DNA of 64,000 nucleotides from an uncultured bacterium (GCA_903892035.1 CAITGV010000001.1:226711-290710); one strand, 5' to 3'; positions 27,661 to 59,721 are shown, counted from the stretch's first letter. Numbers and translations: made by a program. The notes: generated by a model from the letters alone, not told the origin.

Positions 27661-28011
27661 ATGAAAAATAAAGTTTTACTCTTGGGAATTATCTCTCTTC
27701 TCCTGGTTTTTGTAGGTTTACTACAAGGACAAAAAGCAAATGCTGGGGTCGGGCTTTCTTTTGGAGGAAGAATCGTAACAACAGAAGTACCAGGGGTAGA
27801 ATGTGCAAGTGGGTATGGAATTATTTCAATTACCCCAGCAGGGAAATTTCAAGTTACAGATTACGCAACTACGGGTTTTTACCCAGTAGTAACACACGTT
27901 GGTGGATACATCCTTGGTTTATACAGTCCAATCATGGCTCCACTTTGCGTAGACGATGCAGGTACACCGTGGATGGCCTTCCCTGTAACATATTGGGGTT
28001 CAGGTAAATAA
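27661..28011 (+). CDS. Small secreted hypothetical protein (signal peptide)
   Basis: N-terminal signal peptide MKNKVLLLGIISLLLVFVGLLQG. First gene of the T4SS-like cluster. Confidence 0.45.
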   Translation: MKNKVLLLGIISLLLVFVGLLQGQKANAGVGLSFGGRIVTTEVPGVECASGYGIISITPAGKFQVTDYATTGFYPVVTHVGGYILGLYSPIMAPLCVDDAGTPWMAFPVTYWGSGK

Positions 28012-28012
28012 T

Positions 28013-28918: not shown

Positions 28919-28922
28919 TAAT

Positions 28923-31394
28923 TTGATTTTAATGAAAAAATCATCACAAAAAATCATTGCTGGAGTATTATCTGTAGTACTAATTGCTCAAGTTTTTTTT
29001 CTTATTCCAACAAAAACAGCACAAGCAATTTCAATCGATGACGCAGCAAAATCTTTAACTGGTGCAATCGTTGGCTGTGCAGTGGGTATTGGTCTTCAGG
29101 CAATTGGGGCAACCACGAGTACGGCAGAATCTGCGGCTGCGGCTGCGCTGAGTGTAAGTGTGGTTGATGTTGTTGGTAACGCTCATTTGGGTGCAGTTGC
29201 AGGTGGAACTGCAGCAATAACAAACGTCCAAACTTGTTTAAACGCACTCGGAAAAGCTGCGGCTCAATTGGTATTGAAAGAAATTACCGCTGAAACAGTA
29301 AACTGGATAAACAGCGGTTTCAAAGGTCAGCCTCTTTTTGTAAAAAATCCTGGTTCATTTTTCAAAAGCATTGCCGACGAAGAAATTGGAAAATTTAGCG
29401 TGACAATTTCTGACTCAACAAAATATCCATTTGGAAAAGATTTCTTGAAATCATATTTGCTCGCAGCAAAAGCTGGTTTTGCTGGCAACGCACAATATAG
29501 TCTCGACAAAGTTCTCGCACAAGGAAATGGGGGAGTCGACGTCCACGCGAGTTTGAAATTCGTCGATGGTGGCGACTTCACACAAGGTGGGTGGACTGGT
29601 TGGGAAGCACTAACCCAATCGCCACAAAATAACCCGATTGGTTTTGGACTTTTAGCTGGTGACCAGCTTGGTTTTCAACTTTCTGGCACAGTTCAGTCTC
29701 CTGCAGATGTAGTTCACAGCCAACTTAATCAAAGTTTAGGTTTTCTTACTCCATCTGTCTGCGTTGACCCAAGAAACTATGAAGACCCCTCAAAAGATAC
29801 GAGTTTTACATTATCATCTGCCACAGCTCAAGCATCCCAAGACTATTCTACAAGCACAGATTCATATGACCCAACACAAGCAGCAAAAGATTGGCTGGCA
29901 AAGCACGTTTGTAAACGTTGGGAAACAACTACTCCGGGTGGAGTCATTGCAAATCAAATTTCAGCAACACTCAATGTTCCAAAAGATTCACTGATAAATG
30001 CAAACGATCTAAATTCTGACATCCAGGCAATTATGGATGCACTTCTAAACCAACTTTTTGACAAAGGACTTTCTTCACTTACTGATACTTCTAGTAATAC
30101 AAAAGTTTATGACAATAACAACAGTACCGGCCAAGGAGATAACAGCAACTCCACAAATTCAAGCGGCTCAAGTTGGAATAACAACAATCCAGTTGGTCCA
30201 AATAGTTACGTCCAACAAAACCAAGGAAACAATCCTTATCCAAATTTTGTTTGGCCAGATGATTTACCAAAAGTAATAGCAGACCAAACTGCATATGTAG
30301 ATGCGCTAAAAAATCAAAATAAAACTACACATGACTTGATTCGTGAAATTTATGAATTAGACTTTTGTGTTCCTGGACCACATCCTGGTTGGGAAAATAA
30401 TTTTCAACAAGGCACACAAAGTATAATTAATTCTCTACAAAGTCAGGTACCACAAGGTTCAGGCGCAACCCAAGATGTGATGTTTCAAATAATTAGTGGT
30501 TTGTTTTATCAGGTTTTTGGAGTCCCTGCTCATTTCAATAGTACAACACCCCACGTCGGCCTTGCTGGACAAGATATTGTAAAAGCGTATATGAGCAGTA
30601 TAGACGACCAAAATGGAGATTTTGCTTTTCAAAATAATACTTCCATCGCACCAGATTCAAAAGCGTGGTTCAATAAAATTGATTCCTACAAACAAAAGAT
30701 TAATGATAACGAAAATTCAATTTTGACTTACAATTCACTTATTCGTAGATTGGGTTACTTGCAGGACGAAGCAAAAGTACAAACTGATATAATTAAACAA
30801 TATGGTGGCCCACAAACTGGTCCAACAAATCCAAATATAAGTATGTCACCACAAGTTGATGCAGCACAACAGCAACTTGCTGTACTAAATAAAACCTTCA
30901 ATCGTATATATAAAGAGCTTGTAAATTCGGACATTGTAAAACAAGCAAATGACGAAACTCAGGGAATGATAGACGATATTGCAGATATTTCAAGTAGCTC
31001 TCGACCAGATTCTCTATTAAGTATTTGTATTAAAGAAACAATACCTACCTCTTCTAACCCTACTACTTACGTAGTACATCCATTTCGAACACCCTACATA
31101 GATACAACAAATCCAGATATTGATGCCCAGCATTGGGTTCACCCTGCAACAGTTTCATTTAATCATTTGACGTTCTACTATCCTACAATTTCTACTTTTT
31201 TGCCTTATTATTATATGTATACTTACCAACCAATAAACAGTGACCCAAATTTACACGCAATTAGTGTTGGTAGTAACACAAACTTTAATGATACAAGCAA
31301 CAATATGCCATACGGGCCAATTGGTCCAGATCTTTTGACTGGTCCACACAGAACAGGATTCAGCATTCTGGAACAAAAAACAGGTACTTGGTAA
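28923..31394 (+). CDS. Large secreted hypothetical protein (823 aa)
   Basis: Signal peptide/anchor, then Gly/Ala-rich stretch and Asn/Ser/Thr-rich regions. Part of the T4SS-like cluster. Confidence 0.45.
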   Translation: MILMKKSSQKIIAGVLSVVLIAQVFFLIPTKTAQAISIDDAAKSLTGAIVGCAVGIGLQAIGATTSTAESAAAAALSVSVVDVVGNAHLGAVAGGTAAITNVQTCLNALGKAAAQLVLKEITAETVNWINSGFKGQPLFVKNPGSFFKSIADEEIGKFSVTISDSTKYPFGKDFLKSYLLAAKAGFAGNAQYSLDKVLAQGNGGVDVHASLKFVDGGDFTQGGWTGWEALTQSPQNNPIGFGLLAGDQLGFQLSGTVQSPADVVHSQLNQSLGFLTPSVCVDPRNYEDPSKDTSFTLSSATAQASQDYSTSTDSYDPTQAAKDWLAKHVCKRWETTTPGGVIANQISATLNVPKDSLINANDLNSDIQAIMDALLNQLFDKGLSSLTDTSSNTKVYDNNNSTGQGDNSNSTNSSGSSWNNNNPVGPNSYVQQNQGNNPYPNFVWPDDLPKVIADQTAYVDALKNQNKTTHDLIREIYELDFCVPGPHPGWENNFQQGTQSIINSLQSQVPQGSGATQDVMFQIISGLFYQVFGVPAHFNSTTPHVGLAGQDIVKAYMSSIDDQNGDFAFQNNTSIAPDSKAWFNKIDSYKQKINDNENSILTYNSLIRRLGYLQDEAKVQTDIIKQYGGPQTGPTNPNISMSPQVDAAQQQLAVLNKTFNRIYKELVNSDIVKQANDETQGMIDDIADISSSSRPDSLLSICIKETIPTSSNPTTYVVHPFRTPYIDTTNPDIDAQHWVHPATVSFNHLTFYYPTISTFLPYYYMYTYQPINSDPNLHAISVGSNTNFNDTSNNMPYGPIGPDLLTGPHRTGFSILEQKTGTW

Positions 31395-31467
31395 TTCTCC
31401 ACACTCTCGCATAAATAAATAGCACTTTATTTCATTTTGTGTGATAAAATAAAATAGTTATACGCGG

Positions 31468-34400
31468 GTGCATATGAAAAAAAAGAATTTCATACAAAAA
31501 ATATTGATTGGCTTCATGCTCTGCGTGATTCTTCTCGCGCCTGTTTCTTTGTCTTTAAATAAAAATGATATAAAGAATTTTCTGGGAGGAAATAGAGCCG
31601 AAGCAGCAACGACACCAAATGCCATTCATGCGTCAAAATGGTATTACGTAAGTGATATTTCAGCTACAAGTGTAGGGAATACATCACTTACTTTAAAATT
31701 TAGTTTTAAAAAAATTGATAAATTAAGCATAGCTGTTGAAAGCTACGCAATATTAGTTTCTGTAAATGATGCAAACAATTTTACTACAACAAATGGGATA
31801 TCAACGGTAATTGCTGACGTTGAACCAACAACACAAAGTTGGGCAGATTCACCTGACACAATACCCGACCAAACTGCTACTTTTAATGACTTTTTCCCAG
31901 TAAGAGCACCTACTGACTATTACTTAAAAGCCAAATCAAATCAAACGGTAGGTTTTTTGCTTGGAAATATGGGTCTTTATTCTGATCCAATAAAAGTAAC
32001 CACCTTAGATAAAAACAACTCAATAGACCAACAAAATCAAAATGATCCAAATGCACTAAATTTAACTAATCCTGATCAAATTGATGTAAGTAATGACTTT
32101 AGTTGTGGATTTATTTCTAAAGATTCAAGCATACTGGGTTGTGTTGTTAAAATTACCTATTATGTTGTTTTTGTGCCTGCATCATGGGTATTTGAGTTAA
32201 CTGGAAAATTGTTTGATTTCTTTATTGGATACAGCTTGGACAGTAAATCTTACAGCGGATCAAGCATGATAACTGAAGGTTGGAAAATTGTTCGTGACAT
32301 TTCAAATATATTTTTTATATTTATTTTACTTTACGTTGCCATTGCAACAATTTTAGACTTACATGGTTTTGAAGCAAAGAAAATGATTGGTACTGTGGTC
32401 GTAATTGCAGTATTAATTAACTTTTCATTGTTTTTTACTCAAGTAATTATTGATACAGGAAACATTGCTGCTCGGGTTTTTTATAATGGAATTACAGTAA
32501 ATGGTCCAGACGGAACAGAGCTCAACTCAACTAATGGAAAACAACTTTCTGTTGCAATTGTAAATCAGTTTAAACCTCAGAAAATGTTTAATAAAACATT
32601 ACTAAACGAAAGCACCAGCATAAAGGATAGTAGCGGTAATATTGCGCAATTGGGTACTTCCGGTTATCAGGGATTTTTCATAATTATTACATTAATCGCA
32701 GCAGCAATTTGTTTACTTGGTGCTTACACATTCTTTATGTCTGCTTTTATCTTTCTCGGACGTGTGATTCAACTATGGATTTCAATGATATTCGCCCCTT
32801 TTGCTTTTGTTTCATATGTTGTTCCTGGCGCAAAAGGCATGAAGGGAATTGGTGCAGACTCTTGGTGGAAAGATTTACTTGGAAATGCATTTTTGGCACC
32901 AATTTTTATATTCTTCATTTATTTAATTATTCGATTTTTGAAAATAATCACGATCATTAACATTAGTAACGACGCATCACTTATGAGTATTGTGATGTCA
33001 ATCGTTATTCCTCTCTTAATTATAACTTTCCTTTTGATCAAAGCTCGTAAGATTGCCGAGAGTTTGGCGGGGGACATCGGTGGATATATGGTTACAGCGG
33101 CAAAAGCTGTGGGTGGCACTATTGTTGGAGCATCGATGGGTATTGCAGCTGTGGCTGGAAGGCAGACTGTGGGAAGAGGAGCAAACTGGCTTTCAAGCAA
33201 TAAAACTCTTGCAGAATGGTCATCTGGTAAAAAAGGTTGGGTAGCGCAAGCTCTTGCAAAACCTTTGTCATCGAAAGTAAATACACTTTCAAAATCAAGC
33301 TTTGATGTTCGTAATAGTGCTGGTGGCCAACAAGTTTCATCTCTCACTGGCTTTAACTTAAATAATGCAGGGACAAAATTTGCAACACTCGATACTGCAA
33401 ATACTGCTGGTGGTTGGGTAGGTAAACAGGCTCGCCAAGCTCAAAAAGAAAAAGAAATTGCCGAAAATCTAAACAAAGGTTACGACAAGGCTTTGTTTGA
33501 ACAACAAGATGAAGAAGTCCACCACAGAGAAGAAAAAATTCATGAGAAAGAAGAAGAAATTGCTGCAAAAACACTTAGTAGAGACCAGTTTACAAGAGGT
33601 ACACCACAATGGGAAGAAAATAATAAAGAATTGGCATTAATGAAACAAAATCTTTCAGTATTAAAAACTGGAGGGGTTATGAGAAAATATGTTGAAAAGG
33701 ATGAAATTGATCCTAATACAGGAGAAAAAACAGGTAATAAAATTAAAGTACTCGAAAATGAAAAAGATGCCGATGGTAAAGACAAAAAAACTGATGGCCT
33801 ATCAAAGATGCAGGGTGACCTTGCTAGAATTAAAACTGCACCGGAGACAGAATACTATGCAAATAAGCGTCGTGAATCTGGCCAGGTATTTATGGACGAC
33901 GAGCGTGACAAAAATGGAAACATTAAAAGATTTGGCAGACGCGTCACAGCAAACAATGCAGCTGCATATGAAACAGAAAGACTTACAAAGGATATAAGAA
34001 AACTCAATAACGAAATCGAAACAAGAAGAACAAAAAATCCAAATGATCCGAAAATCAAAGAGTTTGGTGAAAAAGTAACAGATTACGAAAAGAAAATTGG
34101 GGTATTACAATCTGAAAAAACTCTGGTTGATACTTTCCACAAAGATGCTTCGCAAGCAAAAAATAATGTTGCTTCACTAACAAAAGAAATACAAACACTA
34201 TATAAAAAAGGTGATCTAACAACTGCAGATAGAGCAACTATTGCTGAAAAGGAAGCTAAAATTAAAAACGAAACCGCAAAACTTACACCAAATGACGCAG
34301 TTAGTAAGGCAATGAAAAACCAAAAAGACTTAATTGGTGATATTAACTTCAAACAAGGAATGAAACAAATTGGAAAAGAAGCTGTTAAAGGATTCTTTGC

Positions 34401-34725
34401 TGGAGTTACTGATTGGCGTTCATGGGCTACTGCAACAGTCGGTTCAGCTATGGGTAAAAGTTTTGCAAAAGTATTGCTTGGAACTGGGGGTGGGGCTTTC
34501 GAATCAGTAAAACGCGTACTTATGGACTATAGTGGAAGAATGAATCAAGATATTGCAAAAGCGGCGGCGGCGAAGTTTGGAAAGTCTACATATGAAGCTC
34601 CGTCTGGAGGAGGTCACGGAGGTGGTGGACACGATGACCATCATGAAGAAGCACACGCTCCAGCATCAAATGGACACGGAGCAGGAGGTCACGATGATCA
34701 CGGTGGGGGAGGAAATAAACATTAG
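31468..34725 (+). CDS. VirB6/TrbL-like polytopic membrane protein with extracellular N-domain and long cytoplasmic coiled-coil tail
   Basis: Signal peptide and ~230-aa exodomain, at least 6 TM helices in the central region, then a ~550-aa charged coiled-coil C-terminus ending in a His/Gly-rich tail (GGHGGGGHDDHHEE..GGHDDHGGGG). This architecture is typical of Gram-positive-type VirB6 homologs. Confidence 0.5.
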   Translation: MHMKKKNFIQKILIGFMLCVILLAPVSLSLNKNDIKNFLGGNRAEAATTPNAIHASKWYYVSDISATSVGNTSLTLKFSFKKIDKLSIAVESYAILVSVNDANNFTTTNGISTVIADVEPTTQSWADSPDTIPDQTATFNDFFPVRAPTDYYLKAKSNQTVGFLLGNMGLYSDPIKVTTLDKNNSIDQQNQNDPNALNLTNPDQIDVSNDFSCGFISKDSSILGCVVKITYYVVFVPASWVFELTGKLFDFFIGYSLDSKSYSGSSMITEGWKIVRDISNIFFIFILLYVAIATILDLHGFEAKKMIGTVVVIAVLINFSLFFTQVIIDTGNIAARVFYNGITVNGPDGTELNSTNGKQLSVAIVNQFKPQKMFNKTLLNESTSIKDSSGNIAQLGTSGYQGFFIIITLIAAAICLLGAYTFFMSAFIFLGRVIQLWISMIFAPFAFVSYVVPGAKGMKGIGADSWWKDLLGNAFLAPIFIFFIYLIIRFLKIITIINISNDASLMSIVMSIVIPLLIITFLLIKARKIAESLAGDIGGYMVTAAKAVGGTIVGASMGIAAVAGRQTVGRGANWLSSNKTLAEWSSGKKGWVAQALAKPLSSKVNTLSKSSFDVRNSAGGQQVSSLTGFNLNNAGTKFATLDTANTAGGWVGKQARQAQKEKEIAENLNKGYDKALFEQQDEEVHHREEKIHEKEEEIAAKTLSRDQFTRGTPQWEENNKELALMKQNLSVLKTGGVMRKYVEKDEIDPNTGEKTGNKIKVLENEKDADGKDKKTDGLSKMQGDLARIKTAPETEYYANKRRESGQVFMDDERDKNGNIKRFGRRVTANNAAAYETERLTKDIRKLNNEIETRRTKNPNDPKIKEFGEKVTDYEKKIGVLQSEKTLVDTFHKDASQAKNNVASLTKEIQTLYKKGDLTTADRATIAEKEAKIKNETAKLTPNDAVSKAMKNQKDLIGDINFKQGMKQIGKEAVKGFFAGVTDWRSWATATVGSAMGKSFAKVLLGTGGGAFESVKRVLMDYSGRMNQDIAKAAAAKFGKSTYEAPSGGGHGGGGHDDHHEEAHAPASNGHGAGGHDDHGGGGNKH

Positions 34726-34740
34726 AAATTGTTGAATTTT

Positions 34741-34773
34741 TCCCTCTCATTTCAGGAGAGGGTCAGGGTTAGG
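34741..34773. repeat. Second-family hairpin module (CCCTCTC-ATTTCAG-GAGAGGG) downstream of VirB6-like gene
   Basis: 7-bp perfect stem, GC-rich, 16 nt after the stop codon. Same CCTCTC/GAGAGG motif as the repeats at 26701 and 35234. Confidence 0.55.
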
Positions 34774-34811
34774 TAAGATAGTTTGAATTTAATTTATGTT
34801 ACAATAAATAT

Positions 34812-35615
34812 ATGGACAAAGAAAAAGTAATGCAAAGAATAAAAGAAGCTTATGAAATTTTGCCTGAAGATATTCAGAAGGCAATTATGGATTCAAGCTA
34901 TCAAGAAACTCTTACTGACATTGCAAAAAATAATAAACTTACTTACGAGCAACTTGGAAGTTTGGAAATGCAAACTACAATGGTAATGCTCGGTCTCACG
35001 CACCCAAATAGTTTCCGCCACGACCTAGGCGAAGATTTGGAAATTAAAGACCAAGAACTCTTGAAAAAAATTGTTGAAGAAGTGAATGAAAGAATATTTA
35101 AAAATATTCGTGAATCACTCCAAGCAATACATGAAGTAAATGAATCTGACACCGACGACGACAATGAAACTTTTTGGAAAGTTGGTCACGAAAATGAAAA
35201 AGTGCCAGGCGATGGGGAAGATGAAGAGGAAATCACCTCTCCCCAACCCTCTCCTTATAAAGGAGAGGGAGCCCAACCCGCAGTTTCCCCCCTCATTAAT
35301 AAGGAGGGGGGTCAGGGGGGAGGTTCTTCTGACATCTTCAAAAAATCCGGCATTGAATTTATAAACCCCGTAGTAAAAGTTCCAACCCCAATTCCACAAC
35401 CGACAGATACCGAAAGAAATAAAATATTAAGTGGTGTAGAAAACCCTATCGCTGGAACATCGGCAATGAATGTCCCACCCAAAGAAAGTATTTTAGAAAA
35501 AAAACTTACAACTTCTTTTGGTTTGCCAAAAGTTGAAAGTGATCATACTGTTCCGAATATCACAAAAGCTGAAGATAAAAAAGTAAGTAGTGATCCGTAT
35601 CGAGAAGCAATCTAA
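34812..35615 (+). CDS. Acidic hypothetical protein carrying an in-frame palindromic-repeat insertion
   Basis: 267-aa ORF. Residues ~141-175 (ITSPQPSPYKGEGAQPAVSPLINKEGGQGGG) are encoded by a copy of the CCTCTCC/GGAGAGG repeat. Confidence 0.45.
   Translation: MDKEKVMQRIKEAYEILPEDIQKAIMDSSYQETLTDIAKNNKLTYEQLGSLEMQTTMVMLGLTHPNSFRHDLGEDLEIKDQELLKKIVEEVNERIFKNIRESLQAIHEVNESDTDDDNETFWKVGHENEKVPGDGEDEEEITSPQPSPYKGEGAQPAVSPLINKEGGQGGGSSDIFKKSGIEFINPVVKVPTPIPQPTDTERNKILSGVENPIAGTSAMNVPPKESILEKKLTTSFGLPKVESDHTVPNITKAEDKKVSSDPYREAI
35234..35333. repeat. Second-family palindromic repeat copy located inside a CDS
   Basis: CACCTCTCCCCAACCCTCTCCTTATAAAGGAGAGGG...CCCCCCTCATTAATAAGGAGGGGGG. The second hairpin is the reverse complement of the CTCCTTATTAATGAG module at 26770-26790. 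Confidence 0.75.
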
Positions 35616-36025
35616 TGCAATTCAAAGTTCCACAATTTATCGATGTTGAAGACAAGATTTTTGGGCCTTTCAGCTTCAAGGAATTTGCTTACATAGTCGG
35701 AGGCCTAGGTGCTTCATATGTAGTTTATAAAATAATGCCTTTAATTTTAGGTATTTTTCTTATAATCCCCATTCTTGCTCTTGCTGGGGCTCTGACATTT
35801 ATAAAAATCAACAATAGACCATTTATCGATATTCTTCAGTCGGCTTTTCAATACGCATTTCAAGATAAACTTTATGTTTGGAAAAAAGCTCAAAAGAAAA
35901 AGAAAAAAGTTGAAGAGGTGGTCGCAACAGAAAGTTTGGTTCCACGTTTATCTGAAAGTAAATTGAAAGATTTATCTTGGAGTTTAGATGTTTTGGATGC
36001 AAGAAAAAATAGTACTCCAAAATGA
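35615..36025 (+). CDS. VirB3/PrgI-like small membrane protein (two TM helices)
   Basis: 136 aa with two adjacent hydrophobic helices, sited immediately upstream of VirB4, as for PrgI/TcpE/VirB3. Assignment rests on position and topology only. Confidence 0.35.
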   Translation: MQFKVPQFIDVEDKIFGPFSFKEFAYIVGGLGASYVVYKIMPLILGIFLIIPILALAGALTFIKINNRPFIDILQSAFQYAFQDKLYVWKKAQKKKKKVEEVVATESLVPRLSESKLKDLSWSLDVLDARKNSTPK

Positions 36026-36137: not shown

Positions 36138-36827
36138 ATGGCAGTTAATGCAAAATCGACACAAGGATTTGTACCAATAAAAGAAGTACGCGATGGCATA
36201 GTAATCCTCAAAGATGGGGGAGTGCGCGCAATTCTTATGGCTTCTTCTGTAAACCTTTCACTAAAATCTGCCGATGAACAACGCGCGACAATTGCACAAT
36301 TTCAATCCTTTTTAAATTCTCTAGAATTTTCTACACAAATTGTTATTCAATCTCGCCGTCTAGACATCCGCCCATACCTTTTAACCCTAGAAACTAGAAT
36401 GAAGGATCAACTTGAACCATTGTTAAAAGTTCAAACTCGTGAATATATTGAATTTATCCGTTCATTCACAGAACAAGTAAATATAATGACAAAAAACTTT
36501 TTTATAGTTGTCCCATATTCAACTCCTGCAATTTCACCAGAGGGTGGAATAATGCAATTCTTAGGAATGTCGAAAAAATCTGGCAAAACAGGGGACAAAA
36601 AAGGTGATGCTTTGATTGATTTCGAAGAAAAAAGAAGCCAACTCGAACAACGCACAAGCATTGTTTCCGACGGTCTTTCAAGAATTGGAGTACGGACGGT
36701 GATGCTCGGCACAGAAGAAGTGATAGAATTGTTTTATAAGACTTTCAATCCAGGCGACACGAGTCAGGGTGTAGCACTGCCAGGAAAAGAAAGTGAGGGT
36801 GACGCAAATAAACAACCAAAACAATAA
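36138..36827 (+). CDS. VirB4-family ATPase, N-terminal domain encoded as a separate ORF
   Basis: FVPIKEVRDGIVILKDGGVRAILMASSVNLSLKSADEQ matches the conserved N-terminus of Gram-positive-type VirB4 (TrsE/PrgJ/TcpF). Stop TAA 36825-36827 is followed after 1 nt by the ATG of the next ORF. Confidence 0.6.
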   Translation: MAVNAKSTQGFVPIKEVRDGIVILKDGGVRAILMASSVNLSLKSADEQRATIAQFQSFLNSLEFSTQIVIQSRRLDIRPYLLTLETRMKDQLEPLLKVQTREYIEFIRSFTEQVNIMTKNFFIVVPYSTPAISPEGGIMQFLGMSKKSGKTGDKKGDALIDFEEKRSQLEQRTSIVSDGLSRIGVRTVMLGTEEVIELFYKTFNPGDTSQGVALPGKESEGDANKQPKQ

Positions 36828-36828
36828 T

Positions 36829-38667
36829 ATGAGCATAATAGACGATTTGTTTGGAAAAAAAAATACGAAGGTTGGAACAGACAAACAAGTCCTGCCTGTT
36901 TTGCCGTCTGAAATTTACGAAGCAGCAACTCTAGACTTCCAAGACATCATAGCTCCCTCTGCTTTGCGTGTTGAACCAAAAGCACTAAATCTTGGAGAAA
37001 AATTGGCGCGCACTTATTTTGTCATTTCTTACCCTCGATATCTTACAGACAATTGGTTTTCACCAATCATCAATCTCGATAAAATTTTTGATGTTTCAAT
37101 TTTTATTCACCCGATAGATACAGCAGTAGTATTAAGGCAATTTCAAAAAAAAGTTGCCGAAGTTCAAAGCCAAATAAACGAACGTTCAAAAAAGGGTCTG
37201 GTGCGCGACCCAATGCTCGACACTGCATACCAAGACTTGGAAGGCCTGCGCAACAATTTAATGCAAGCTCAAGAAAAAATGTTTGACGTCGGACTCTACA
37301 TCACAATGTATGCTGACAATGAAAATGAACTTTTCAAAATTGAAAACGAAATCAAATCAATTTTAGAATCTCGCCTAGTATATTTTAAACCAGCTCTCTT
37401 CCAGCAAGAAGAAGCTTTCAAGAGCGTAATGCCGACTGGCACCGACCTCCTAAATATTCACCAAAAATTAAATTCTGAACCACTCTCATCAATTTTTCCT
37501 TTCGTTTCTTTTGACCTCACTTCGGATAAAGGAATTCTTTACGGCGTGAATCGCCACAATTCTAGTCTTGTTATTTTTGATCGTTTCTCTTTGGAAAATT
37601 ACAACTCTATCACTTTTGCAAAATCTGGTTCTGGAAAATCATACGCTACAAAATTGGAAATCATTCGTACATTAATGTTTGATACAGAGGTAATAGTTAT
37701 CGACCCCGAGCGTGAATACGAATACCTTGCAGAAGCCATCGGTGGAAGATATTTCAATATCTCTCTTTCTTCAGATCACCATATCAACCCTTTTGATTTG
37801 CCAATACCAAGAAGTGATGAAAATCCTGCGGACATTTTGCGTTCAAATATCATAAACCTCGTCGGTCTTTTCCGTATTATGCTCGGAGGCTTAACTCCTG
37901 AAGAAGATTCAATTATCGATCGCGCAATCAGTGAAACTTACGCGCTTAAAGATATTTCAGCAGAATCAGATTTTTCAAATATCGAGCCACCACTTTTGTC
38001 TGATTTCGAAATGGTTCTATCTGGAATGGAGGGGAGTGAGTCTATTATTCAACGTCTTACAAAATACACTCGTGGCACGTGGTCTACTTTCATAAACCAG
38101 CCTTCAAATGTGGATATAAATCGTAAATTTGTCGTTTTCTCTGTACGTGATATGGAAGACGAGCTAAAACCAGTGGCAATGTACATAGTCACTCACTTTA
38201 TCTGGAATGCTGTTCGCAAAAACTTAAAAAAGAGGCTTCTTGTTGTGGATGAGGCATGGTGGATGATGAAATCTGACGACACAGCCTCTTTCCTTTACTC
38301 AATTGCAAAACGAGGCCGTAAATATTTCCTTGGTCTTGCGACAATTACCCAAGACGTCGGCGACTTTATGAAAAGCCCGTACGGTGTGCCAATTGTCACA
38401 AACTCTTCAATTCAAATGCTTTTAAAACAATCACCTTCGACTATCGACCTACTACAAAAGACCTTTAACCTTACAGATGAAGAAAAATATCTACTCCTTG
38501 AGTCAAATGTGGGGGAGGGCATATTCTTTGCGGGACTCAAACACGTTGCAATTAAAATTATTTCATCATATACGGAAGACCAAATTATTACTTCCGACCC
38601 ATCGCAGGTTTTAGCAATAAAAAAAGCAAAGGATGATTTGGCGGCAAGTGAATCTGGGCAGAAATAA
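36829..38667 (+). CDS. VirB4-family conjugation/T4SS ATPase, core and C-terminal ATPase domain
   Basis: RTYFVISYPR (VirB4 middle-domain motif), Walker A ITFAKSGSGKSYA, Walker B LLVVDEAWWMM. Confidence 0.8.
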   Translation: MSIIDDLFGKKNTKVGTDKQVLPVLPSEIYEAATLDFQDIIAPSALRVEPKALNLGEKLARTYFVISYPRYLTDNWFSPIINLDKIFDVSIFIHPIDTAVVLRQFQKKVAEVQSQINERSKKGLVRDPMLDTAYQDLEGLRNNLMQAQEKMFDVGLYITMYADNENELFKIENEIKSILESRLVYFKPALFQQEEAFKSVMPTGTDLLNIHQKLNSEPLSSIFPFVSFDLTSDKGILYGVNRHNSSLVIFDRFSLENYNSITFAKSGSGKSYATKLEIIRTLMFDTEVIVIDPEREYEYLAEAIGGRYFNISLSSDHHINPFDLPIPRSDENPADILRSNIINLVGLFRIMLGGLTPEEDSIIDRAISETYALKDISAESDFSNIEPPLLSDFEMVLSGMEGSESIIQRLTKYTRGTWSTFINQPSNVDINRKFVVFSVRDMEDELKPVAMYIVTHFIWNAVRKNLKKRLLVVDEAWWMMKSDDTASFLYSIAKRGRKYFLGLATITQDVGDFMKSPYGVPIVTNSSIQMLLKQSPSTIDLLQKTFNLTDEEKYLLLESNVGEGIFFAGLKHVAIKIISSYTEDQIITSDPSQVLAIKKAKDDLAASESGQK

Positions 38668-38768: not shown

Positions 38769-39752
38769 ATGAAAAGAATTTTATTTTCTTTCTTGATATT
38801 GGCTATATTTATGCCTTTTTCTCTGGCTCTTGCTGCTGGTCAAGTTTCAGCTTCAAGTATAAACGTCGCAATCAATCCTGAAGTTCCAGGACCAAATACA
38901 AATACTTCAATAACACTTTCGAGCTATGCGACAGACATAAATCGTGCATTAATCTCCTGGACACTAGACGGGAAGACGATGCAGTCTGGTATTGGAAAAA
39001 CAATTTTTTCTTTCACTACAAAAGGCGTAGGAACAGCCACAACAGTTACGGTAAATATAAGTATTGATTTACAACCCGCAATTACAAAAACAATAGTCAT
39101 TACTCCCGCAGATGTAGATATGCTTTGGGAAGCTATCGATTCATATGTGCCACCTTTCTACAAAGGTAAAGCCATGCCAAGCTCTGAAGCAAAAATAAAG
39201 GTCACAGCAATGCCCAATATAAAAGGCGCAAACGGAGTAAAAATAAAATCTTCAGATATGGTTTACAATTGGAAACACAATTACGACAACGATCCAAACG
39301 GTTCTGGTTACGGAAAAGATTCCTACATAGTAAATGCAAATTATTTAAATAATTCTGAAATTGTTGATTTGAGTGTTTCGTCAGTAAGCAATTCTAGTGC
39401 AGCATCGGGTAGGGCAGTGCTCGTGACTGGGGACCCTAAAATTGTTTTTTATCAAAAGGATCCACTTGAAGGAATAAAGTATGAAAATGCTTTAAAAACT
39501 GATTTAAATCTCTCAACAGATGAGACAACCTTGGTCGCAGAACCATATTTCTTTTCACCCGCTGATATAAATTCTTCAAAATATAAATACACATGGAACA
39601 TAAATGGTAGCGCAGTGGACACTCCAGCAAAAAAGAATGTGATGACTCTTCGAAAAGGACCAACTGGAGGAACTGCAAATATTTCTCTAGAAATCGAAAA
39701 CGTATTAAAATTATTCCAAGACGCAAAGCAGAATTTAAACATTAACTTCTAA
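38769..39752 (+). CDS. Secreted hypothetical protein (signal peptide, Ser/Thr/Asn-rich)
   Basis: Signal peptide MKRILFSFLILAIFMPFSLALAAG. Predicted beta-rich extracellular protein within the T4SS-like cluster. Confidence 0.45.
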   Translation: MKRILFSFLILAIFMPFSLALAAGQVSASSINVAINPEVPGPNTNTSITLSSYATDINRALISWTLDGKTMQSGIGKTIFSFTTKGVGTATTVTVNISIDLQPAITKTIVITPADVDMLWEAIDSYVPPFYKGKAMPSSEAKIKVTAMPNIKGANGVKIKSSDMVYNWKHNYDNDPNGSGYGKDSYIVNANYLNNSEIVDLSVSSVSNSSAASGRAVLVTGDPKIVFYQKDPLEGIKYENALKTDLNLSTDETTLVAEPYFFSPADINSSKYKYTWNINGSAVDTPAKKNVMTLRKGPTGGTANISLEIENVLKLFQDAKQNLNINF

Positions 39753-41890
39753 TGAAAATGAATAAAAAAATTAAAATAATTTTTCTATCCGCCTTATTGA
39801 TAATCACCGGATTTTTTGCAATCAAAGCAAGCGCTGCAACACCAGCAGGTTTTACAGGAACAACAGTAGCTGACGGCTCTACTTTATATAAATATGACTC
39901 AACTTGTGCAGTTGGTGCTGGAATATTCAAAAAACAACGCGGAATAATTGTCCCAACCAATGCAACGTCTGTATCAAAAGGTTACATATATTTCCATGGA
40001 TTAAACACATCCACAAACCCAACATCAGACTACATGTGTACTACTTCAGGACTTTGTGCTTCAGCAAAAGCTGAAAATTCAGTCATTTTTACACCTGAAA
40101 CAAATGTTACGGGACAGACTGCTCAAACAGTAGGATACAAAGATGAATTTGATTGTTTCATACAGGAAGCAAAAACAAAACTTCAATCACTTCATATTGG
40201 TGTTCCAAATACAATTGATATTGCAGGTCACAGTGCAGGAGCAAAACTTGTAATGAATACAGTGAACCTTGCGCCAGGGTTTTCCACAAGTAGTAGGGTG
40301 GACGCAATTATTTTTGATGGTTGCTATGGAAATTGGTGTAATCAAATTATTGCCTCGCCCCACACAAATCATGTATATCTTTACTATCAAACTCAAGATA
40401 CAGACGGTACTGGTCCACTTTCAATTGCCGCATATAATACAAATAAAACAAAAGCAAGTATTTTAAAAGTTGAGGCTGGACACTATAGAATTCCTGCAAA
40501 ATGTTTTATGGACCACATAAATGGAGATAAGTGTGGTGCTCCTGAAGTTCCTTCAGACCAAGGTTACAACGTAGATGTAAAACAGGTTGCGGGAACGGTG
40601 GCAAATTCTTCAAAAATTACGGTCACATATAGCGGTTTTACTGAAACAACTCCAGCTAGAATAAATATGGAATATGCAAGTGCTGCAGAAAATGACAGCC
40701 CAGCACAAAGTGCAACAATATCCATGACCGCAAGTTCAAGTCCTCAAACAATAGAAAAAACTTTTAGTAACCTTACAGACCAAACAGAATATAGAATTAC
40801 GGTTACAGAAGATAAATCGTTCGACGACCCTAGTAGATTATCGTATAGTGACCCTGTAACTTTTACTCAATCAACTGTAATAAATGGCAACGGGGATAAC
40901 AAACTTGATTGTAGTGATCCAAAAAATACAGACAATCAGGATTGTAAATGTACAACAGGGTATTGTTTACTTCAACCAATTGCGGGATTAAAAACTATTC
41001 CAGATAGTACATCAATTTCTACATATTTAAATATAATGTTTAAAATTGGTATTGGTCTAGCAGCTGTCCTTGCTGTGATAATGATCGTCATCGGTGGAAT
41101 ACAATATATGTCCACAGATGCAATATCTGGAAAAGAAGACGGCAAACACCGCATCAAGGGCGCTCTCACTGGCCTCATCCTCGCTCTCGGTGCATGGGCA
41201 CTTCTAAACACAATCAACCCCGACCTCGTCCTCATAAAACTCGACCTCAAAAGCGCACAAGTTAAGATAGACACCTCAAGTGTCGACGTACCAGCAACTA
41301 ATCTAACCACAGGCTCTCCTGTTTGTGGTGGTAAATACAAAGTTGGAGACGTATGGCAAGCAGATGATGTTATTAGAAAAAAATACACTGATACTTTTGG
41401 AAGCAGTTCAGTTAATGTTGGAAATTGTAAAACAGTTGGACAACATTCTTGTACCAGTCTTGCAGGGCTTCCAGATAGCACATACTCAGGTATGAAAAAA
41501 TTAGAAGATGCAATAATTAGTGCTCAAGTTAATATTCTACCTGGACCATCTTGTAAGGATTACACTTGTCTAGAAATCACAGGAGGTACTGAATGTTGGG
41601 ACCATGGGAACAGTCAAAGTACGCACATACCAGGAAGTGATGTTGTTGATTTGCTTAATAGTAACCAGTTAAATCAATTTTTAACAACTTTTGCAAATGG
41701 ATCAAATAATAATAAAGGATATACAAGAACTATAGGTCAATTTGGTTTAACACCAAATGCAACTCTCTATGTTTATCAATGGGGAGGAACAGGTAATGAT
41801 TATTTATCTATAGTTCACGAAACAGTACCAGACCATTTTCATGTTTTAAGTTGGATGGGACCACCACCGGCACAGTGGCCAAAACAATAA
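39752..41890 (+). CDS. Secreted multidomain protein: alpha/beta-hydrolase-like (GHSAG) N-domain + VirB2-pilin-like TM hairpin + Cys-rich C-domain
   Basis: Signal peptide. Nucleophile-elbow motif DIAGHSAGAKLV. Two hydrophobic helices separated by a short charged loop (IGIGLAAVLAVIMIVIGGIQYM-STDAISGKEDGKHRIKG-ALTGLILALGAWALLNTI), as in VirB2/TrbC pilins. C-terminal ~200 aa has 10 Cys. Confidence 0.5.
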   Translation: MKMNKKIKIIFLSALLIITGFFAIKASAATPAGFTGTTVADGSTLYKYDSTCAVGAGIFKKQRGIIVPTNATSVSKGYIYFHGLNTSTNPTSDYMCTTSGLCASAKAENSVIFTPETNVTGQTAQTVGYKDEFDCFIQEAKTKLQSLHIGVPNTIDIAGHSAGAKLVMNTVNLAPGFSTSSRVDAIIFDGCYGNWCNQIIASPHTNHVYLYYQTQDTDGTGPLSIAAYNTNKTKASILKVEAGHYRIPAKCFMDHINGDKCGAPEVPSDQGYNVDVKQVAGTVANSSKITVTYSGFTETTPARINMEYASAAENDSPAQSATISMTASSSPQTIEKTFSNLTDQTEYRITVTEDKSFDDPSRLSYSDPVTFTQSTVINGNGDNKLDCSDPKNTDNQDCKCTTGYCLLQPIAGLKTIPDSTSISTYLNIMFKIGIGLAAVLAVIMIVIGGIQYMSTDAISGKEDGKHRIKGALTGLILALGAWALLNTINPDLVLIKLDLKSAQVKIDTSSVDVPATNLTTGSPVCGGKYKVGDVWQADDVIRKKYTDTFGSSSVNVGNCKTVGQHSCTSLAGLPDSTYSGMKKLEDAIISAQVNILPGPSCKDYTCLEITGGTECWDHGNSQSTHIPGSDVVDLLNSNQLNQFLTTFANGSNNNKGYTRTIGQFGLTPNATLYVYQWGGTGNDYLSIVHETVPDHFHVLSWMGPPPAQWPKQ

Positions 41891-46628: not shown

Positions 46629-46825
46629 GACAATACAATACACCATTTATACGAAAAAATCAAATTATTTTACCCATTTAAAAACAGGGGATAGAGACAC
46701 ACCAAAATATCCTTTAGTACCAAGCTTATTTTAGTAAAAATATTCTTATCAACAGCTTATCAACATAGTAATGAAGTTATACAGTGTTTCCCCTTTTCAA
46801 TTCTGAGTATTATAATAGGGAAGCT
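46629..46825. promoter_or_regulatory. rpmH/dnaA intergenic region with tandem DnaA-box-like motifs (oriC-associated / dnaA promoter)
   Basis: cTTATCAACAgcTTATCAACA (two 8/9 matches to TTATCCACA), plus an AT-rich stretch. Confidence 0.5.
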
Positions 46826-48184
46826 ATGGAAGATACAAAAAAAGTTTGGGAAAATTGTTTGGGTGAAATTGAACTTGGAGTTTCTAAGGCAAATTTCAGT
46901 ACATGGTTTAGAAATACTCATATAATTAAAGAAGAGATGGGGTCAGTCTATCTTGGTGTGCCAAATGAATTCGTGAAAGATTGGTTATTGAATAAATACC
47001 ATAAATTAATACTAAAGACTTTAATGGGTTTTCATGAAGACATCCGCTCTTTGGAATATGTAATTGTAAAAAATGAAGGTGGACATAAAGAAAATCAACC
47101 ACAAGTATCTGAGACAGCAAAACCAATGCCGAATAAAGAATTACCTTTGGCAGATTTATATATAAACAAAGACGATAACCTGAACCCACGTTACATCTTT
47201 GATTCTTTTATTGTTGGATCATTCAATGAGCTTGGCTACGCAGCGGGGCAGGCCATCATTAAAGCTCCTGGGACAGCCTACAACCCGTTTTTTATATACG
47301 GCCCGACAGGTTTAGGTAAAACACATTTAATACAAGCTATAGGCAATTCCATCAAAGCTAAATATACAGAAAAAAAAGTTCACTATATTACTTTAGAAAA
47401 ATTTGCTACAGACCTCGTGAATGCACTTCAAACAAACAAAGCAAATTCATTTAAAGATAAATATAGAAAATATGATGTTTTAATCATCGACGATATCCAA
47501 TTTGTGGGGAAGATGGAAAAAACCCAAGAGGAACTGTTTCATACCTTCAATACTTTTCATGAAAACCAGAAACAGATTATTTTTTCATCTGATAAACACC
47601 CAAACTACATCCCAGGGCTAGAAGATCGTTTAAAATCAAGGTTTTCGGCTGGTATGATCGTAGATATCAACGAACCAGAGATAGAATCTCGTATAGCAAT
47701 ACTGAAAGCAAAAGTAAAAGATAGTGAGTATTTGATACCAGATGAAATCATAGAATACATAGCTTCGTCGATACAAGGAAACATTCGAGAATTAGAAGGA
47801 AGTTTAAATGCTATTGTATGCCAAACGGGGGTAAAAGGAAGATCTCTTTCATTGAGTGAAGTTAAAAGTTTAATCAAAAATAATATTAAACCAAAGAAAA
47901 ATATCTCTGTGAAAGAAGTGGTTAAAGTTGTTTCTGAGTTTTATAATGTCGACGAAATGACAATATATGAAACAACAAGGAGAAAAGAGATTGTGAAAGC
48001 AAGGCAAATGGTAATGTTTATTTTACGTGAGGACTTCAATGTATCTTACCCATTAATAGGTCAGAAACTCGGGGGTAAAGACCACACAACAGTAATACAC
48101 TCATGTTTAAAGATAAAAGAGGGAATTAAAAATGATCCATCAATTTTACAAGAATTAGAGCAATTACGTGCAATGTTTAAATAG
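46826..48184 (+). CDS. dnaA: Chromosomal replication initiator DnaA
   Basis: GPTGLGKTHL Walker A, DDIQF, C-terminal DNA-binding helix. Start set at MEDTKKVWENCL to give the canonical N-terminus. Confidence 0.9.
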   Translation: MEDTKKVWENCLGEIELGVSKANFSTWFRNTHIIKEEMGSVYLGVPNEFVKDWLLNKYHKLILKTLMGFHEDIRSLEYVIVKNEGGHKENQPQVSETAKPMPNKELPLADLYINKDDNLNPRYIFDSFIVGSFNELGYAAGQAIIKAPGTAYNPFFIYGPTGLGKTHLIQAIGNSIKAKYTEKKVHYITLEKFATDLVNALQTNKANSFKDKYRKYDVLIIDDIQFVGKMEKTQEELFHTFNTFHENQKQIIFSSDKHPNYIPGLEDRLKSRFSAGMIVDINEPEIESRIAILKAKVKDSEYLIPDEIIEYIASSIQGNIRELEGSLNAIVCQTGVKGRSLSLSEVKSLIKNNIKPKKNISVKEVVKVVSEFYNVDEMTIYETTRRKEIVKARQMVMFILREDFNVSYPLIGQKLGGKDHTTVIHSCLKIKEGIKNDPSILQELEQLRAMFK

Positions 48185-48402
48185 TGTTGATAATTTTGTG
48201 GATAAAGTAGTGAAAAAGATTGTTAATAAAAATATAAAGTGGGGATAAAAATTTAATAATTTTTTAAAAAAAAGTTATTAAATAGATTACACACAAAAGA
48301 TATCAAAAATAAAACAGTAAATAGGTTGATAAATATAAACAAAAGATACTTATCCACTTATCCACATGTATAGTATTAATAGTAATTTAATATATAGAAT
48401 AT
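48185..48402. other. Candidate oriC: AT-rich dnaA-dnaN spacer with multiple DnaA boxes
   Basis: TTGTGGATAA (perfect box, reverse orientation), GTGGGGATAA, and tandem TTATCCACTTATCCACA. Highly AT-rich with A/T tracts. Confidence 0.6.
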
Positions 48403-49500
48403 ATGAAACTCAACTGCACAACCGAAAAAATAAAAAACGCCATTTCAATAACTGAAAGAGTTACTGGTAAGAATTTAACATTACCAATTTTATCTTCAAT
48501 ACTTTTAATCGCATCTGGTAAATCACTTAAAATAAGAGCAACAAATCTTAGTATTGGTGTTGAGGTTGAAATACCTGCCACTATTGAAAAAGAAGGTGTA
48601 GCTGCTGTTTCTGGAGATATATTAAATAATTTATTTACCAATATAAATACAAATCAAGAAATTAATATAAGTTTAGAAAATGATAATTTATTAATACAAA
48701 CAAAAAATAATAAAATAATACTAAAAAATTTTTCGCCAGATGATTTCCCAACAATTCCAATAGTTAAAGGTGAAAGTATTACAATACCATCAAATAAATT
48801 TATAGATGGTATTAAATCTGTATATTACGCTTCAGCTATATCTGATATAAAACCAGAAATTGGAAGTATTTATATTTACCAGGAAAATGATAATTTAGTT
48901 TTTGTAGCTACAGATTCTTTTCGTTTAGCTGAAAAGAAAATTAAAATTAAAAATATTGAAAACTTTCCAGCAATATTAATTCCATTTAAAAATATAGTTG
49001 AAATACTTAGAATTTTTAGTGACATAAATGATGATATTAAAATTTGTTTTAGTAAAAACCAAATATCATTTTCATCCAAAAATATATATTTTACATCGAG
49101 AGTTATAGACGGAATTTTCCCAGACTATAAACAAATTATTCCGAAAAATCATACAACTGAAATAATAATCTTAAAACAAGATCTTTTAAATTCCCTTAAA
49201 ATGTCAAATGTATTTTCTGATAAATTTAATCAAATAACATTTCAAATTCAACCAAAAGAAAAACTTTTTGAATTGAAATCAAAAAATAATGATATTGGTG
49301 AAAATACTACAAAATTGGATGCTTCCCTATCTGGGGTGAGTATAGTAGCGAACTTTAATCAAAAATATTTACTGGACTGCATACAGTCTATAAAAGAGGA
49401 TAGTATTGTTTTACAAATGGTTGGCGATAATAAACCCCTAGTAGTTTCAGGGCTTTCAAATCAAAGTTTTATGTATTTAATAATGCCAATGAATAGATAA
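48403..49500 (+). CDS. dnaN: DNA polymerase III beta sliding clamp
   Basis: 365 aa immediately after dnaA. Three-domain clamp pattern (LKIRATNL...VEVEIPA, MPMN C-terminus). Confidence 0.85.
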   Translation: MKLNCTTEKIKNAISITERVTGKNLTLPILSSILLIASGKSLKIRATNLSIGVEVEIPATIEKEGVAAVSGDILNNLFTNINTNQEINISLENDNLLIQTKNNKIILKNFSPDDFPTIPIVKGESITIPSNKFIDGIKSVYYASAISDIKPEIGSIYIYQENDNLVFVATDSFRLAEKKIKIKNIENFPAILIPFKNIVEILRIFSDINDDIKICFSKNQISFSSKNIYFTSRVIDGIFPDYKQIIPKNHTTEIIILKQDLLNSLKMSNVFSDKFNQITFQIQPKEKLFELKSKNNDIGENTTKLDASLSGVSIVANFNQKYLLDCIQSIKEDSIVLQMVGDNKPLVVSGLSNQSFMYLIMPMNR

Positions 49501-49501
49501 A

Positions 49502-49759
49502 ATGGAATATATTCAAATAGGACAATTTTTACAAAAATTTGAAGTTGTTTTAAGTGATGATAAGGCTAAAAAAATATTAGTACAAAAAATATTAAAAAAT
49601 AATATTAATTTTGATATTGATTTAAATAATATAAAAATAAAAGACGGAGTAGTCTCAATTTTAGGCAGTGGTACTCTAAAGAACGAGATTTTCTTAAAAA
49701 AAGAAAAAATCGAAAAAATGATAAATGAAGGGACTTCAAATTTAAGAAGTATTCGTTAA
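49502..49759 (+). CDS. Small DUF721-like protein
   Basis: 85 aa after dnaN. Pattern ...KIKDGVVSILG...resembles DUF721 proteins common in dnaA-dnaN-recF regions. Weak assignment. Confidence 0.3.
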   Translation: MEYIQIGQFLQKFEVVLSDDKAKKILVQKILKNNINFDIDLNNIKIKDGVVSILGSGTLKNEIFLKKEKIEKMINEGTSNLRSIR

Positions 49760-58494: not shown

Positions 58495-58612
58495 TTTAAG
58501 CCTATTTTCCCTATTGACATTTAAGCTTAAAAGTGATATACTAGTAGCTGTAGAGGTGTTCTTTACATGTAAACAATTAAATAATAAATAAATACATACA
58601 TAATTAAAAACA

Positions 58613-59611: not shown

Positions 59612-59721
59612 AGTTTGGTAGAAGTGAGATTTATCCACTTCTACCCATACTTAAGGTTTTAATTTTAAATTGAAATTTTAAGTGTGCGAGATGAAATTAT
59701 AAGAATTAATTATTAATATAT

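Follow-up and report, generated by a model that had tools for sequence, protein, structure and literature searches.

A 64,000-nucleotide stretch of DNA from an uncultured bacterium (GCA_903892035.1, CAITGV010000001.1:226711-290710; the whole stretch is called the window below) encodes a 712-residue fusion protein at the end of a co-directional type IV secretion system (T4SS) operon of a tiny, host-dependent member of the Patescibacteria. The operon runs from PrgI/VirB3 through a TrsD-like protein, VirB4 and a secreted 327-residue partner to the fusion gene itself. We consider it fairly probable that this protein is a T4SS-associated bifunctional envelope hydrolase, similar in its task to VirB1 and held in place by a VirB2-like hairpin. 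The evidence computed directly comprises the architecture of the protein, the homology of its hairpin, the conservation of its candidate catalytic residues and its synteny with VirB4. The open reading frame (ORF) described in the original prediction, which was made from the sequence alone, is present and uninterrupted, and its parts are as follows.

39752..41890 (+), fusion gene: signal peptide, alpha/beta-hydrolase-like domain, FN3-like spacer, cysteine linker, VirB2-like hairpin, LAS-like C-terminal domain (C-domain)
39752..39835 (+), Sec-type signal peptide, residues 1-28 (hydropathy scan): lysine-rich n-region, 16-residue hydrophobic core, ASA followed by AT
39869..40546 (+), N-terminal alpha/beta-hydrolase-like domain (N-domain), residues ~40-265, 8 Cys; from conservation, PDB profile matches and Pfam matches of relatives
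39995-40000 (+), oxyanion-type HG, residues 82-83
40226-40240 (+), nucleophile elbow GHSAG, residues 159-163
40316-40318 (+), D189
40481-40483 (+), H244
40583..40867 (+), beta-rich FN3-like spacer, residues 278-372 (~95 residues); weak Pur_ac_phosph_N match, low confidence
40910..40978 (+), four-cysteine linker, residues 387-409, ending in the conserved Y-C-L-L-x-P; from conservation
41006..41221 (+), VirB2-like T4SS_pilin hairpin, residues 419-490; from Pfam PF18895, hydropathy and conservation
41324..41851 (+), C-domain, residues ~525-700, 6 Cys; a Patescibacteria family without annotation, putative LAS-type zinc peptidase

The start ATG of the ORF overlaps by one base the TAA stop of the gene before it (TAATG, within taATGaaaATG), and a protein identical to the fusion protein is found on five public, metagenome-derived contigs of up to 488 kb. 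A 19-residue hydropathy scan detects exactly three hydrophobic segments, at residues 5-28 (the signal peptide), ~427-452 and ~470-488, and no further 19-residue window of the protein has a Kyte-Doolittle mean above 0.7; the signal-peptide cleavage site, near residue 28, was placed by the AxA rule. The 18 cysteines are divided between the N-domain (eight), the linker (four: 387, 398, 400 and 405) and the C-domain (six: 525, 559, 567, 601, 606 and 615), and the even number of conserved cysteines in every extracytoplasmic part would fit disulfide bonding outside the cell. Although it was originally described as secreted, the protein is predicted to be anchored in the membrane in an N-out/C-out topology with both large domains extracellular, rather than to be freely secreted. 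The hydrolase-like domain is also shorter than the ~300 residues first assigned to it: it covers ~230 residues and is followed by the separate beta-rich spacer. The Pur_ac_phosph_N match of this spacer has an E-value of 0.013 (2.5e-4 in one homologue), and sister proteins carry one or more FN3-like beta repeats at the same position. A phmmer search of the full-length protein against the PDB returned a chance NosL match only. A minus-strand ORF at 40972-41481 was rejected as a gene, as it sits wholly within the conserved coding region.

The VirB2-like hairpin and its carriers

Two hydrophobic helices with a charged 17-residue loop had been noticed near residue 430, and the hydropathy scan places them as transmembrane segments TM1 (~427-452) and TM2 (~470-488), joined by the loop MSTDAISGKEDGKHRIK (residues 453-469; four K/R and three D/E). 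The likeness to VirB2 pilins that had been drawn from this topology is now supported by Pfam: residues 419-488 match PF18895 (T4SS_pilin) over profile positions 2-71 of 71 and above the gathering score (29.6 vs 26.6 bits, E=7e-7, more exactly 7.3e-7), in an operon with PrgI, TrsD and VirB4. The NCBIfam Mbov_0395 pilin-like conjugal-transfer model also matches, under its cut-off (E=2.9e-7). The fusion protein has no match to the classical TrbC/VirB2 family PF04956 at E<=1; three of 49 hairpin homologues match that family at 1.5e-4. Its score, its topology and its genomic surroundings all place the hairpin in PF18895.

Forty-eight proteins similar to the whole fusion protein all have residues ~404-495 in common with it, with divergent flanks on either side. 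In each of them the hairpin is preceded by some tens to some hundreds of residues and, with one apparent exception (54 residues), followed by 150-350 residues, and the Pfam domains after or around the hairpin are mostly peptidoglycan-active: NlpC/P60 (7), VanY (4), SLT (3), YkuD (3), M23, M15_4, SLT_2 and Amidase_5. One homologue bearing a VanY domain is named 'VirB2 component (pilin)' in a JGI entry.

The immediate borders of the hairpin are marked by two motifs: Y-C-L-L-x-P before TM1 (residues 404-409, 40961-40978), which appears as C..YCLLAPLP in sister proteins, and NTINP after TM2 (residues 486-490, 41207-41221). These could be processing or docking sites. If they are processed, the protein might be a precursor, with cuts at Y-C-L-L-x-P and N-T-I-N-P separating soluble enzymes from a small mature pilin. 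Both termini of classical VirB2/TrbC pilins undergo processing, and P409 and N486 to P490 are near-invariant across 49 hairpin proteins whose flanking domains are unrelated. Against such cleavage, the motifs may be no more than structural helix ends, and the Pfam model itself ends at ~residue 488, which makes the NTINP motif part of the domain; we regard the precursor as quite improbable.

A second question raised by the hairpin is whether the protein is a true polymerizing pilin, one that takes part in a T4SS pilus, be it as major, minor or tip subunit, and carries its enzymes to the host surface. A pilus-tip effector was among the roles originally suggested. The PF18895 assignment speaks for this, as does the absence of any other PF18895-type hairpin within the window, which leaves the fusion gene as the sole pilin-like ORF of the T4SS locus there. 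Both hairpin termini are predicted to lie outside, the side that F-type and T-type pili expose. Furthermore, the T4SS of the patescibacterium Southlakia epibionticum depends on its array of pilins, and the existence of a pilus has been suggested (PMC12857230 among the sources). However, according to PMC11665869 and PMC12857230 no Patescibacteria T4SS has so far been observed to form a pilus and no PF18895 member to polymerize into one, and stand-alone pilins may exist beyond the 64 kb covered here. The size of the protein also argues against polymerization. With ~390 residues before the hairpin and ~220 after it, this is not a small stand-alone pilin of ~100-190 residues; known VirB2 proteins are small, and flanks of ~400 and 220 residues would be expected to hinder helical packing. 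We think a polymerizing pilin unlikely.

There is a wider version of the same idea, in which the VirB2-like hairpin of Patescibacteria would be a general carrier, and the T4SS would build interchangeable wall- or lipid-degrading subunits into a filament or contact structure that breaches the host envelope. We offer this as a speculative extension to which we give a low probability. If it were true, the fusion protein would be a subunit with an enzyme on each end of its hairpin, and breach of the host envelope would be an essential, non-conjugative T4SS function in epibiotic life.

Two candidate enzyme domains

The GxSxG lipase/esterase elbow pointed out in the original prediction lies in DIAGHSAGAKLV (residues 156-167). 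An exhaustive HMMER search of 1.8 billion cluster representatives, through which the N-domain family was found, gave 68 matching representatives (47 at E<=1e-10), and in 45 of the 67 other than the fusion protein a PF18895-like hairpin lies downstream of the N-domain. A word-index protein search was patchy here: the N-terminal 345 residues recovered nothing, their own protein included, and the C-domain alignment recovered two proteins. In a 30-sequence alignment G83 (YFHG), S161 (GHSxG), D189 (FDxCY), Y211, H244 and C251 are invariant, and seven other N-domain cysteines are at least 90% conserved. The nucleophile serine is kept in 89% of 65 aligned sequences, and the ~10% of the family that lack it suggest pseudo-enzymes.

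When the family profile was compared with the PDB, all 52 distinct matches at E<=10 were alpha/beta hydrolases (best 0.013, cited range E=0.013-2), including esterases, lipases, cutinases and PAF acetylhydrolase; the aligned regions have the elbow at their centre and in some cases extend to the HG strand. Single relatives match the Pfam models Abhydrolase_3 (7.5e-7) and Say1_Mug180 (7e-8) and the hormone-sensitive-lipase models of NCBIfam (1.6e-4). This is good transitive evidence that the N-domain is a minimal, disulfide-rich, extracellular alpha/beta hydrolase of predicted fold with a putative Ser-Asp-His triad, and the serine-hydrolase assignment is strengthened by the conserved order of HG, GHSxG, D and H. 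That order, the length of ~230 residues and the weak profile matches are shared with Abhydrolase_3 and hormone-sensitive-lipase-type enzymes and with minimal alpha/beta hydrolases (Abhydrolase_5, cutinase-like). Unlike these, the N-domain has eight conserved cysteines, an acid 28 residues after the serine, a predicted extracellular location and a fusion to a pilin hairpin, and all alpha/beta-hydrolase matches of the fusion protein fall under the family cut-offs.

Within the N-domain sub-family the partner domains are VanY (9), M15_4 (8), M23 (7), Peptidase_C39_2 (5), GDSL esterases (4), SLT (4), M74 (3), M15 (2), Amidase_2 and CHAP. From these partners, the candidate substrate would be an ester bond in an envelope component, such as a lipid, an O-acetyl ester or a D-alanyl ester. 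The N-domain is also found at the C-terminus of large proteins (640-1300 residues) that have no hairpin (P0079, P0082, P0092, P0102, P0103, P0109 and P0113).

Several points weigh against the view that the fusion protein is a T4SS-linked envelope hydrolase. The protein itself has no alpha/beta-hydrolase match in Pfam or NCBIfam, and a single-sequence AlphaFold model of residues 29-400 has a predicted local distance difference test score (pLDDT) of 35, too low to bear on the fold. D189 lies just 28 residues past S161, a spacing atypical of many enzymes with the alpha/beta-hydrolase fold. P0050, the closest homologue in the N-domain family, is encoded between DsbA-like and RadA-like genes with no VirB4 within 6 kb, so the combination of N-domain and hairpin is not always a T4SS operon component. 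Two genes upstream of P0050 there is a DsbA/thioredoxin-like gene (L066 3874-4530), which fits cysteine-rich extracellular fusion proteins.

The region behind the hairpin had been described as a ~200-residue domain with ten cysteines and left without identification. Some ~220 residues do follow TM2, but they contain six cysteines, and ten is reached only by adding the four of the linker. The region is probably a second enzyme, resembling LAS metallopeptidases. The domain was present in ten proteins of the first search round. A census of GTDB, in which each species was represented by one genome and the pattern was taken from the best-conserved part of the domain, gave 63 loci, nearly all from metagenome-assembled genomes (MAGs) of Patescibacteria, among them Paceibacterota, Nomurabacteria, Yonathbacteria, Zambryskibacteria and 'Saccharibacteria'. 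Three motifs stand out, ITGGTECWxH (609-618), H625-x7-D633 and E690-x4-H695-x-H697. Conservation of the first, as ITGGTE[CY]WxH, follows by construction of the search. The other positions lie outside the search pattern, and a 65-sequence alignment shows 98% conservation for H625 and 100% for C559, C567, T568, D633, E690, H695 and H697.

Homology searches leave the C-domain as a family of its own. Neither the fusion protein nor 31 family members have a Pfam match in this region, profiles of 8 and 31 sequences found nothing relevant among PDB sequences, and a Foldseek comparison of the C-domain model with the PDB and BFVD gave no match. With hhalign, the probability of a relationship to the VanY and M15_4 C-terminal parts of sister fusions was below 2%, and against all 23 other clusters of C-terminal parts from hairpin fusions the best result was P=0.009 over 39 columns, at a probability below 5%.

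The metal site of LAS peptidases would be matched by the invariant H-x7-D together with the H-x-H, which lies on the final strand of the prediction; the H-x7-D spacing is one residue beyond the classical LAS range. Two independent comparisons point to the LAS reading as well. In sister fusions the slot after the hairpin holds VanY, M15_4, M74, M15, M23, NlpC/P60, SLT, YkuD, Amidase_2 or CHAP, bona fide LAS peptidases among them; and SEML1_0007 of S. epibionticum, an essential protein encoded right after virB4, ends in an ECOD 'Hedgehog/DD-peptidase' domain. The known LAS peptidases (MepA of M74; VanX, VanY and LdcB of M15; the Streptomyces albus DD-peptidase; the Hedgehog N-terminal domain) have no detectable sequence similarity to the C-domain, which differs from them in the H-x7-D spacing, in an extra invariant E-x-W-x-H motif, in its conserved disulfide cysteines and in being confined to Patescibacteria in our scan. 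We see a roughly even chance that the C-domain is a LAS-type zinc peptidase acting on peptidoglycan peptides; the broader proposal of a metal-dependent enzyme is rated higher.

It might also be argued that neither domain cuts anything and that the protein is an adhesin or scaffold whose enzyme-like domains bind host wall polymers. Inactive VirB1 homologues have been proposed as adhesins in Gram-positive systems (PMC12857230), and the N-domain relatives without a nucleophile serine could be read in the same way. In the fusion protein, however, all candidate catalytic residues are intact, and they belong to positions that are invariant (S161, D189 and H244, 30 sequences) or 98-100% conserved (H625, D633, E690, H695 and H697, 65 sequences), which makes a purely adhesive role very unlikely.

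The conserved module and its genomic setting

The module that follows VirB4 and the partner gene, in 40 or more species genomes, consists of the hairpin and the C-domain. In at least 55 of the 63 species genomes both lie in one ORF, with the hairpin directly before the C-domain, and the other loci are cut by contig ends, with the exception of one 1141-residue protein. In 44 of 63 loci VirB4 lies on the same strand, its start 1.5-5.3 kb (mostly ~3 kb) ahead of that of the fusion gene, and in 40 of 45 a homologue of the 327-residue partner is encoded between the two, directly upstream of the hairpin and C-domain gene and often overlapping it. The fusion gene studied here lies two places downstream of virB4, and its hairpin and C-domain core keeps that position in dozens of species-level genomes. 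None of the 63 C-domain locus proteins has an alpha/beta-hydrolase domain; their N-terminal parts consist of FN3-like repeats. The fusion protein is therefore the conserved T4SS component (FN3-like stalk, hairpin and C-domain) with an extra putative enzyme at its N-terminus, drawn from a second hairpin-associated family. A hydrolase fused to a pilin hairpin had been called unusual; this holds for classical T4SSs, but our comparisons indicate that such fusions recur in Patescibacteria.

The 1141-residue exception (L064 4863-8285, from a MAG labelled Saccharibacteria) has a terminal C-domain and an N-terminal anchor without a hairpin, and resembles the essential SEML1_0007 of S. epibionticum in size and layout.

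These data also bear on whether the gene encodes a housekeeping autolysin or lipase that lies beside T4SS genes by chance and uses a generic two-helix anchor. The position of P0050 away from VirB4 and the occurrence of the C-domain without a hairpin in the L064 protein are what such a model would explain. Conversely, the order VirB4, partner, hairpin and C-domain is kept across 40-44 species-level genomes, the gene is translationally coupled to the one upstream, and the anchor is specifically a T4SS_pilin homologue; a chance neighbour is thus extremely unlikely. The wall- or membrane-degrading role within a T4SS-like system that had been suggested for the protein is supported, at the level of prediction, by the VirB4 synteny in 44 species genomes and by the sister fusions with recognized peptidoglycan hydrolases.

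The genes of the operon that could be assigned or described, upstream of the fusion gene, are listed below.

31468..34725 (+), 1085-residue polytopic membrane protein with multiple TM-like segments, candidate VirB6-like channel subunit
35615..36025 (+), PrgI (VirB3-like), two TM segments; Pfam PF12666, 33.2 bits vs cut-off 27
36138..36827 (+), TrsD / VirB4-N-terminal-like protein; NCBIfam TrsD 1.2e-6 and VirB4_plasma N-terminal 4.4e-9, both under cut-off
36793..38667 (+), VirB4-type T4SS ATPase; NCBIfam conju_CD1110, 380 bits vs cut-off 325; Pfam P-loop_TraG
38769..39752 (+), secreted 327-residue partner, translationally coupled to the fusion gene; signal peptide, homologues upstream in related loci

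The VirB4 gene ends 1.1 kb upstream of the fusion gene on the same strand, and the gene at 36138..36827 has PF26593 (TraC-like) on record. The 327-residue partner, which has no Pfam or NCBIfam match, may be a further subunit of the T4SS cell-wall complex. The 1085-residue protein matched no family in the Pfam and NCBIfam scans and is a VirB6-like candidate by its position and by comparison with the 1088-residue VirB6-like SEML1_0013 of S. epibionticum. It is one of five co-directional genes 5' of PrgI (27661-35615, +), encoding a 116-residue secreted, a 301-residue bitopic, an 823-residue, the 1085-residue polytopic and an acidic 267-residue cytoplasmic protein; none of the five has a family match, and they are presumably the remaining T4SS components. 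Between the end of the fusion gene and the next ORF there is a strong promoter-like site (11/12 matches, with TG).

Chromosomal housekeeping genes lie on both sides of the T4SS locus: upstream ksgA, uvrD and PNPase, and downstream, at 5-7 kb, dnaA and dnaN. The dnaA/dnaN genes lie at 46784-49500 (+), next to an AT-rich stretch at 48001-50000, and GC content within the window is at its lowest (0.247) in a 2-kb segment comprising dnaN and the spacer between dnaA and dnaN, which is probably the replication origin region. A survey of Patescibacteria T4SSs described them as MPF-FATA-like, often near dnaA/dnaN and ksgA, usually without a relaxase and with PF18895 VirB2-like pilins near virB4 (PMC12102498), and the location of the present operon near a putative origin agrees with this published origin-proximity. 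An origin as a mobile or conjugative element was rejected: the locus is chromosomal, beside ksgA, uvrD, dnaA and dnaN, and no relaxase or coupling protein was found among the ORFs scanned, a subset of those in the window. All relatives with an organism name come from Patescibacteria MAGs, save a few probably mislabelled bins.

Elsewhere in the window, another wall hydrolase with a LysM-LysM-Peptidase_M23 architecture is encoded at 20641-21801 (-), ~6 kb upstream of the T4SS block. At 56770-62226 a T2SSE-family ATPase (PilB-like, minus strand) adjoins an 834-residue DUF11 surface-type protein, probably as part of a type IV pilus locus, and a tyrosine recombinase at 13741-14655 (-) (Phage_integrase with a SAM-like N-domain) may be XerC/D or an integrase.

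Proposed role and comparison with known systems

These observations enable us to propose a model for the fusion protein, in which topology, metal dependence, substrates and T4SS docking are inferred. The signal peptide would direct the N-terminal part through Sec, TM1 would stop transfer, the K/R-rich loop would be kept in the cytoplasm, and TM2 would export the C-terminal part. Two domains would then sit outside the monoderm cell, both stabilized by disulfides: a Ser-Asp-His alpha/beta hydrolase of esterase/lipase type, borne on an FN3-like stalk, and a domain resembling LAS-type zinc peptidases. The hairpin, through its homology to the T4SS pilins of Patescibacteria, would position these enzymes at the T4SS, where they may open the cell wall, be it the cell's own, the host's or both, with the C-domain cutting peptide stems or cross-links and the N-domain an ester-linked envelope component. 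A cytoplasmic T4SS substrate like the X-Tfe effectors of Xanthomonas was considered and rejected in view of the Sec signal peptide and the membrane hairpin.

Patescibacteria cannot grow as epibionts without their T4SS, the function of which has been called completely unknown (PMC11665869). A recognizable VirB1 is missing from most Patescibacteria that have VirB2 homologues (PMC12102498), and hydrolases anchored by a pilin-like hairpin would account for this reported scarcity. Across the lineage, the enzyme partners of the hairpin comprise LAS-like, VanY, M23, NlpC/P60, SLT, YkuD, GDSL and alpha/beta-hydrolase domains. Our results suggest that the 'missing VirB1' is built into pilin-like proteins, that some of the 'pilins' counted in surveys are enzyme anchors, and that breaking down the envelope where the cells touch is a core task of the T4SS in Patescibacteria. 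Furthermore, they define two domain families without curated models, each with a clear candidate active site. We found no description of pilin-hydrolase fusions in the searchable literature, the coverage of which is incomplete; the architectures themselves are visible in public domain databases.

Among known systems, the stand-alone PF18895 pilins of S. epibionticum (SEML1_0014-0019) and the VirB2/TrbC family (PF04956), which some PF18895 proteins also match, resemble the fusion protein in their two-helix hairpin, in its short charged loop and in being encoded within T4SS loci. The S. epibionticum pilins have 125-185 residues and no enzyme domain, as opposed to the 712 residues of the fusion protein. 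A different kind of likeness is offered by SEML1_0007 of S. epibionticum ML1, likewise a large protein, whose gene comes right behind virB4 in the T4SS locus of a patescibacterium (PMC10633639, Table S2), and is essential for epibiotic growth (PMC10633639). Its C-terminal domain was assigned to ECOD Hedgehog/DD-peptidase on a Sonic-hedgehog template (Wang et al. 2023, Cell; PMC10633639, Table S2), and the same template is the best structural match of the C-domain described here. SEML1_0007 has 1113 residues, neither a PF18895 hairpin nor an alpha/beta-hydrolase domain is given for it in Table S2, and its likeness to the C-domain is one of domain assignment.

In function, the fusion protein would parallel the membrane-anchored VirB1-type hydrolases of Gram-positive systems, a group of monoderm wall hydrolases that includes PrgK, TraG, CD419 and TrsG. 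All Gram-positive VirB1 homologues known so far are membrane-anchored with extracellular enzyme domains, and hydrolases of the PrgK, TraG and Orf14 type are needed to get the T4SS through the monoderm wall (PMC12857230). Like the fusion protein, PrgK of pCF10, TraG of pIP501 and Orf14 of Tn916 are encoded in T4SS operons, anchored in the membrane and equipped with at least one extracellular wall-degrading domain (PMC12857230). They differ in having a single N-terminal TM anchor, as opposed to a VirB2-like hairpin, and catalytic domains of the SLT, muramidase, LytM or CHAP type, none of which is detected in the fusion protein by Pfam. NlpC/P60 is likewise not detected there, whereas sister hairpin fusions do carry NlpC/P60, SLT and CHAP. 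In the fusion protein, unlike in PrgK, TraG or Orf14, predicted enzymes lie on both sides of the anchor, one of them alpha/beta-hydrolase-like. By analogy, it would work in the manner of VirB1, PrgK and TraG while standing outside those families for want of a homologous catalytic domain: a functional equivalent with another anchor and other catalytic domains.

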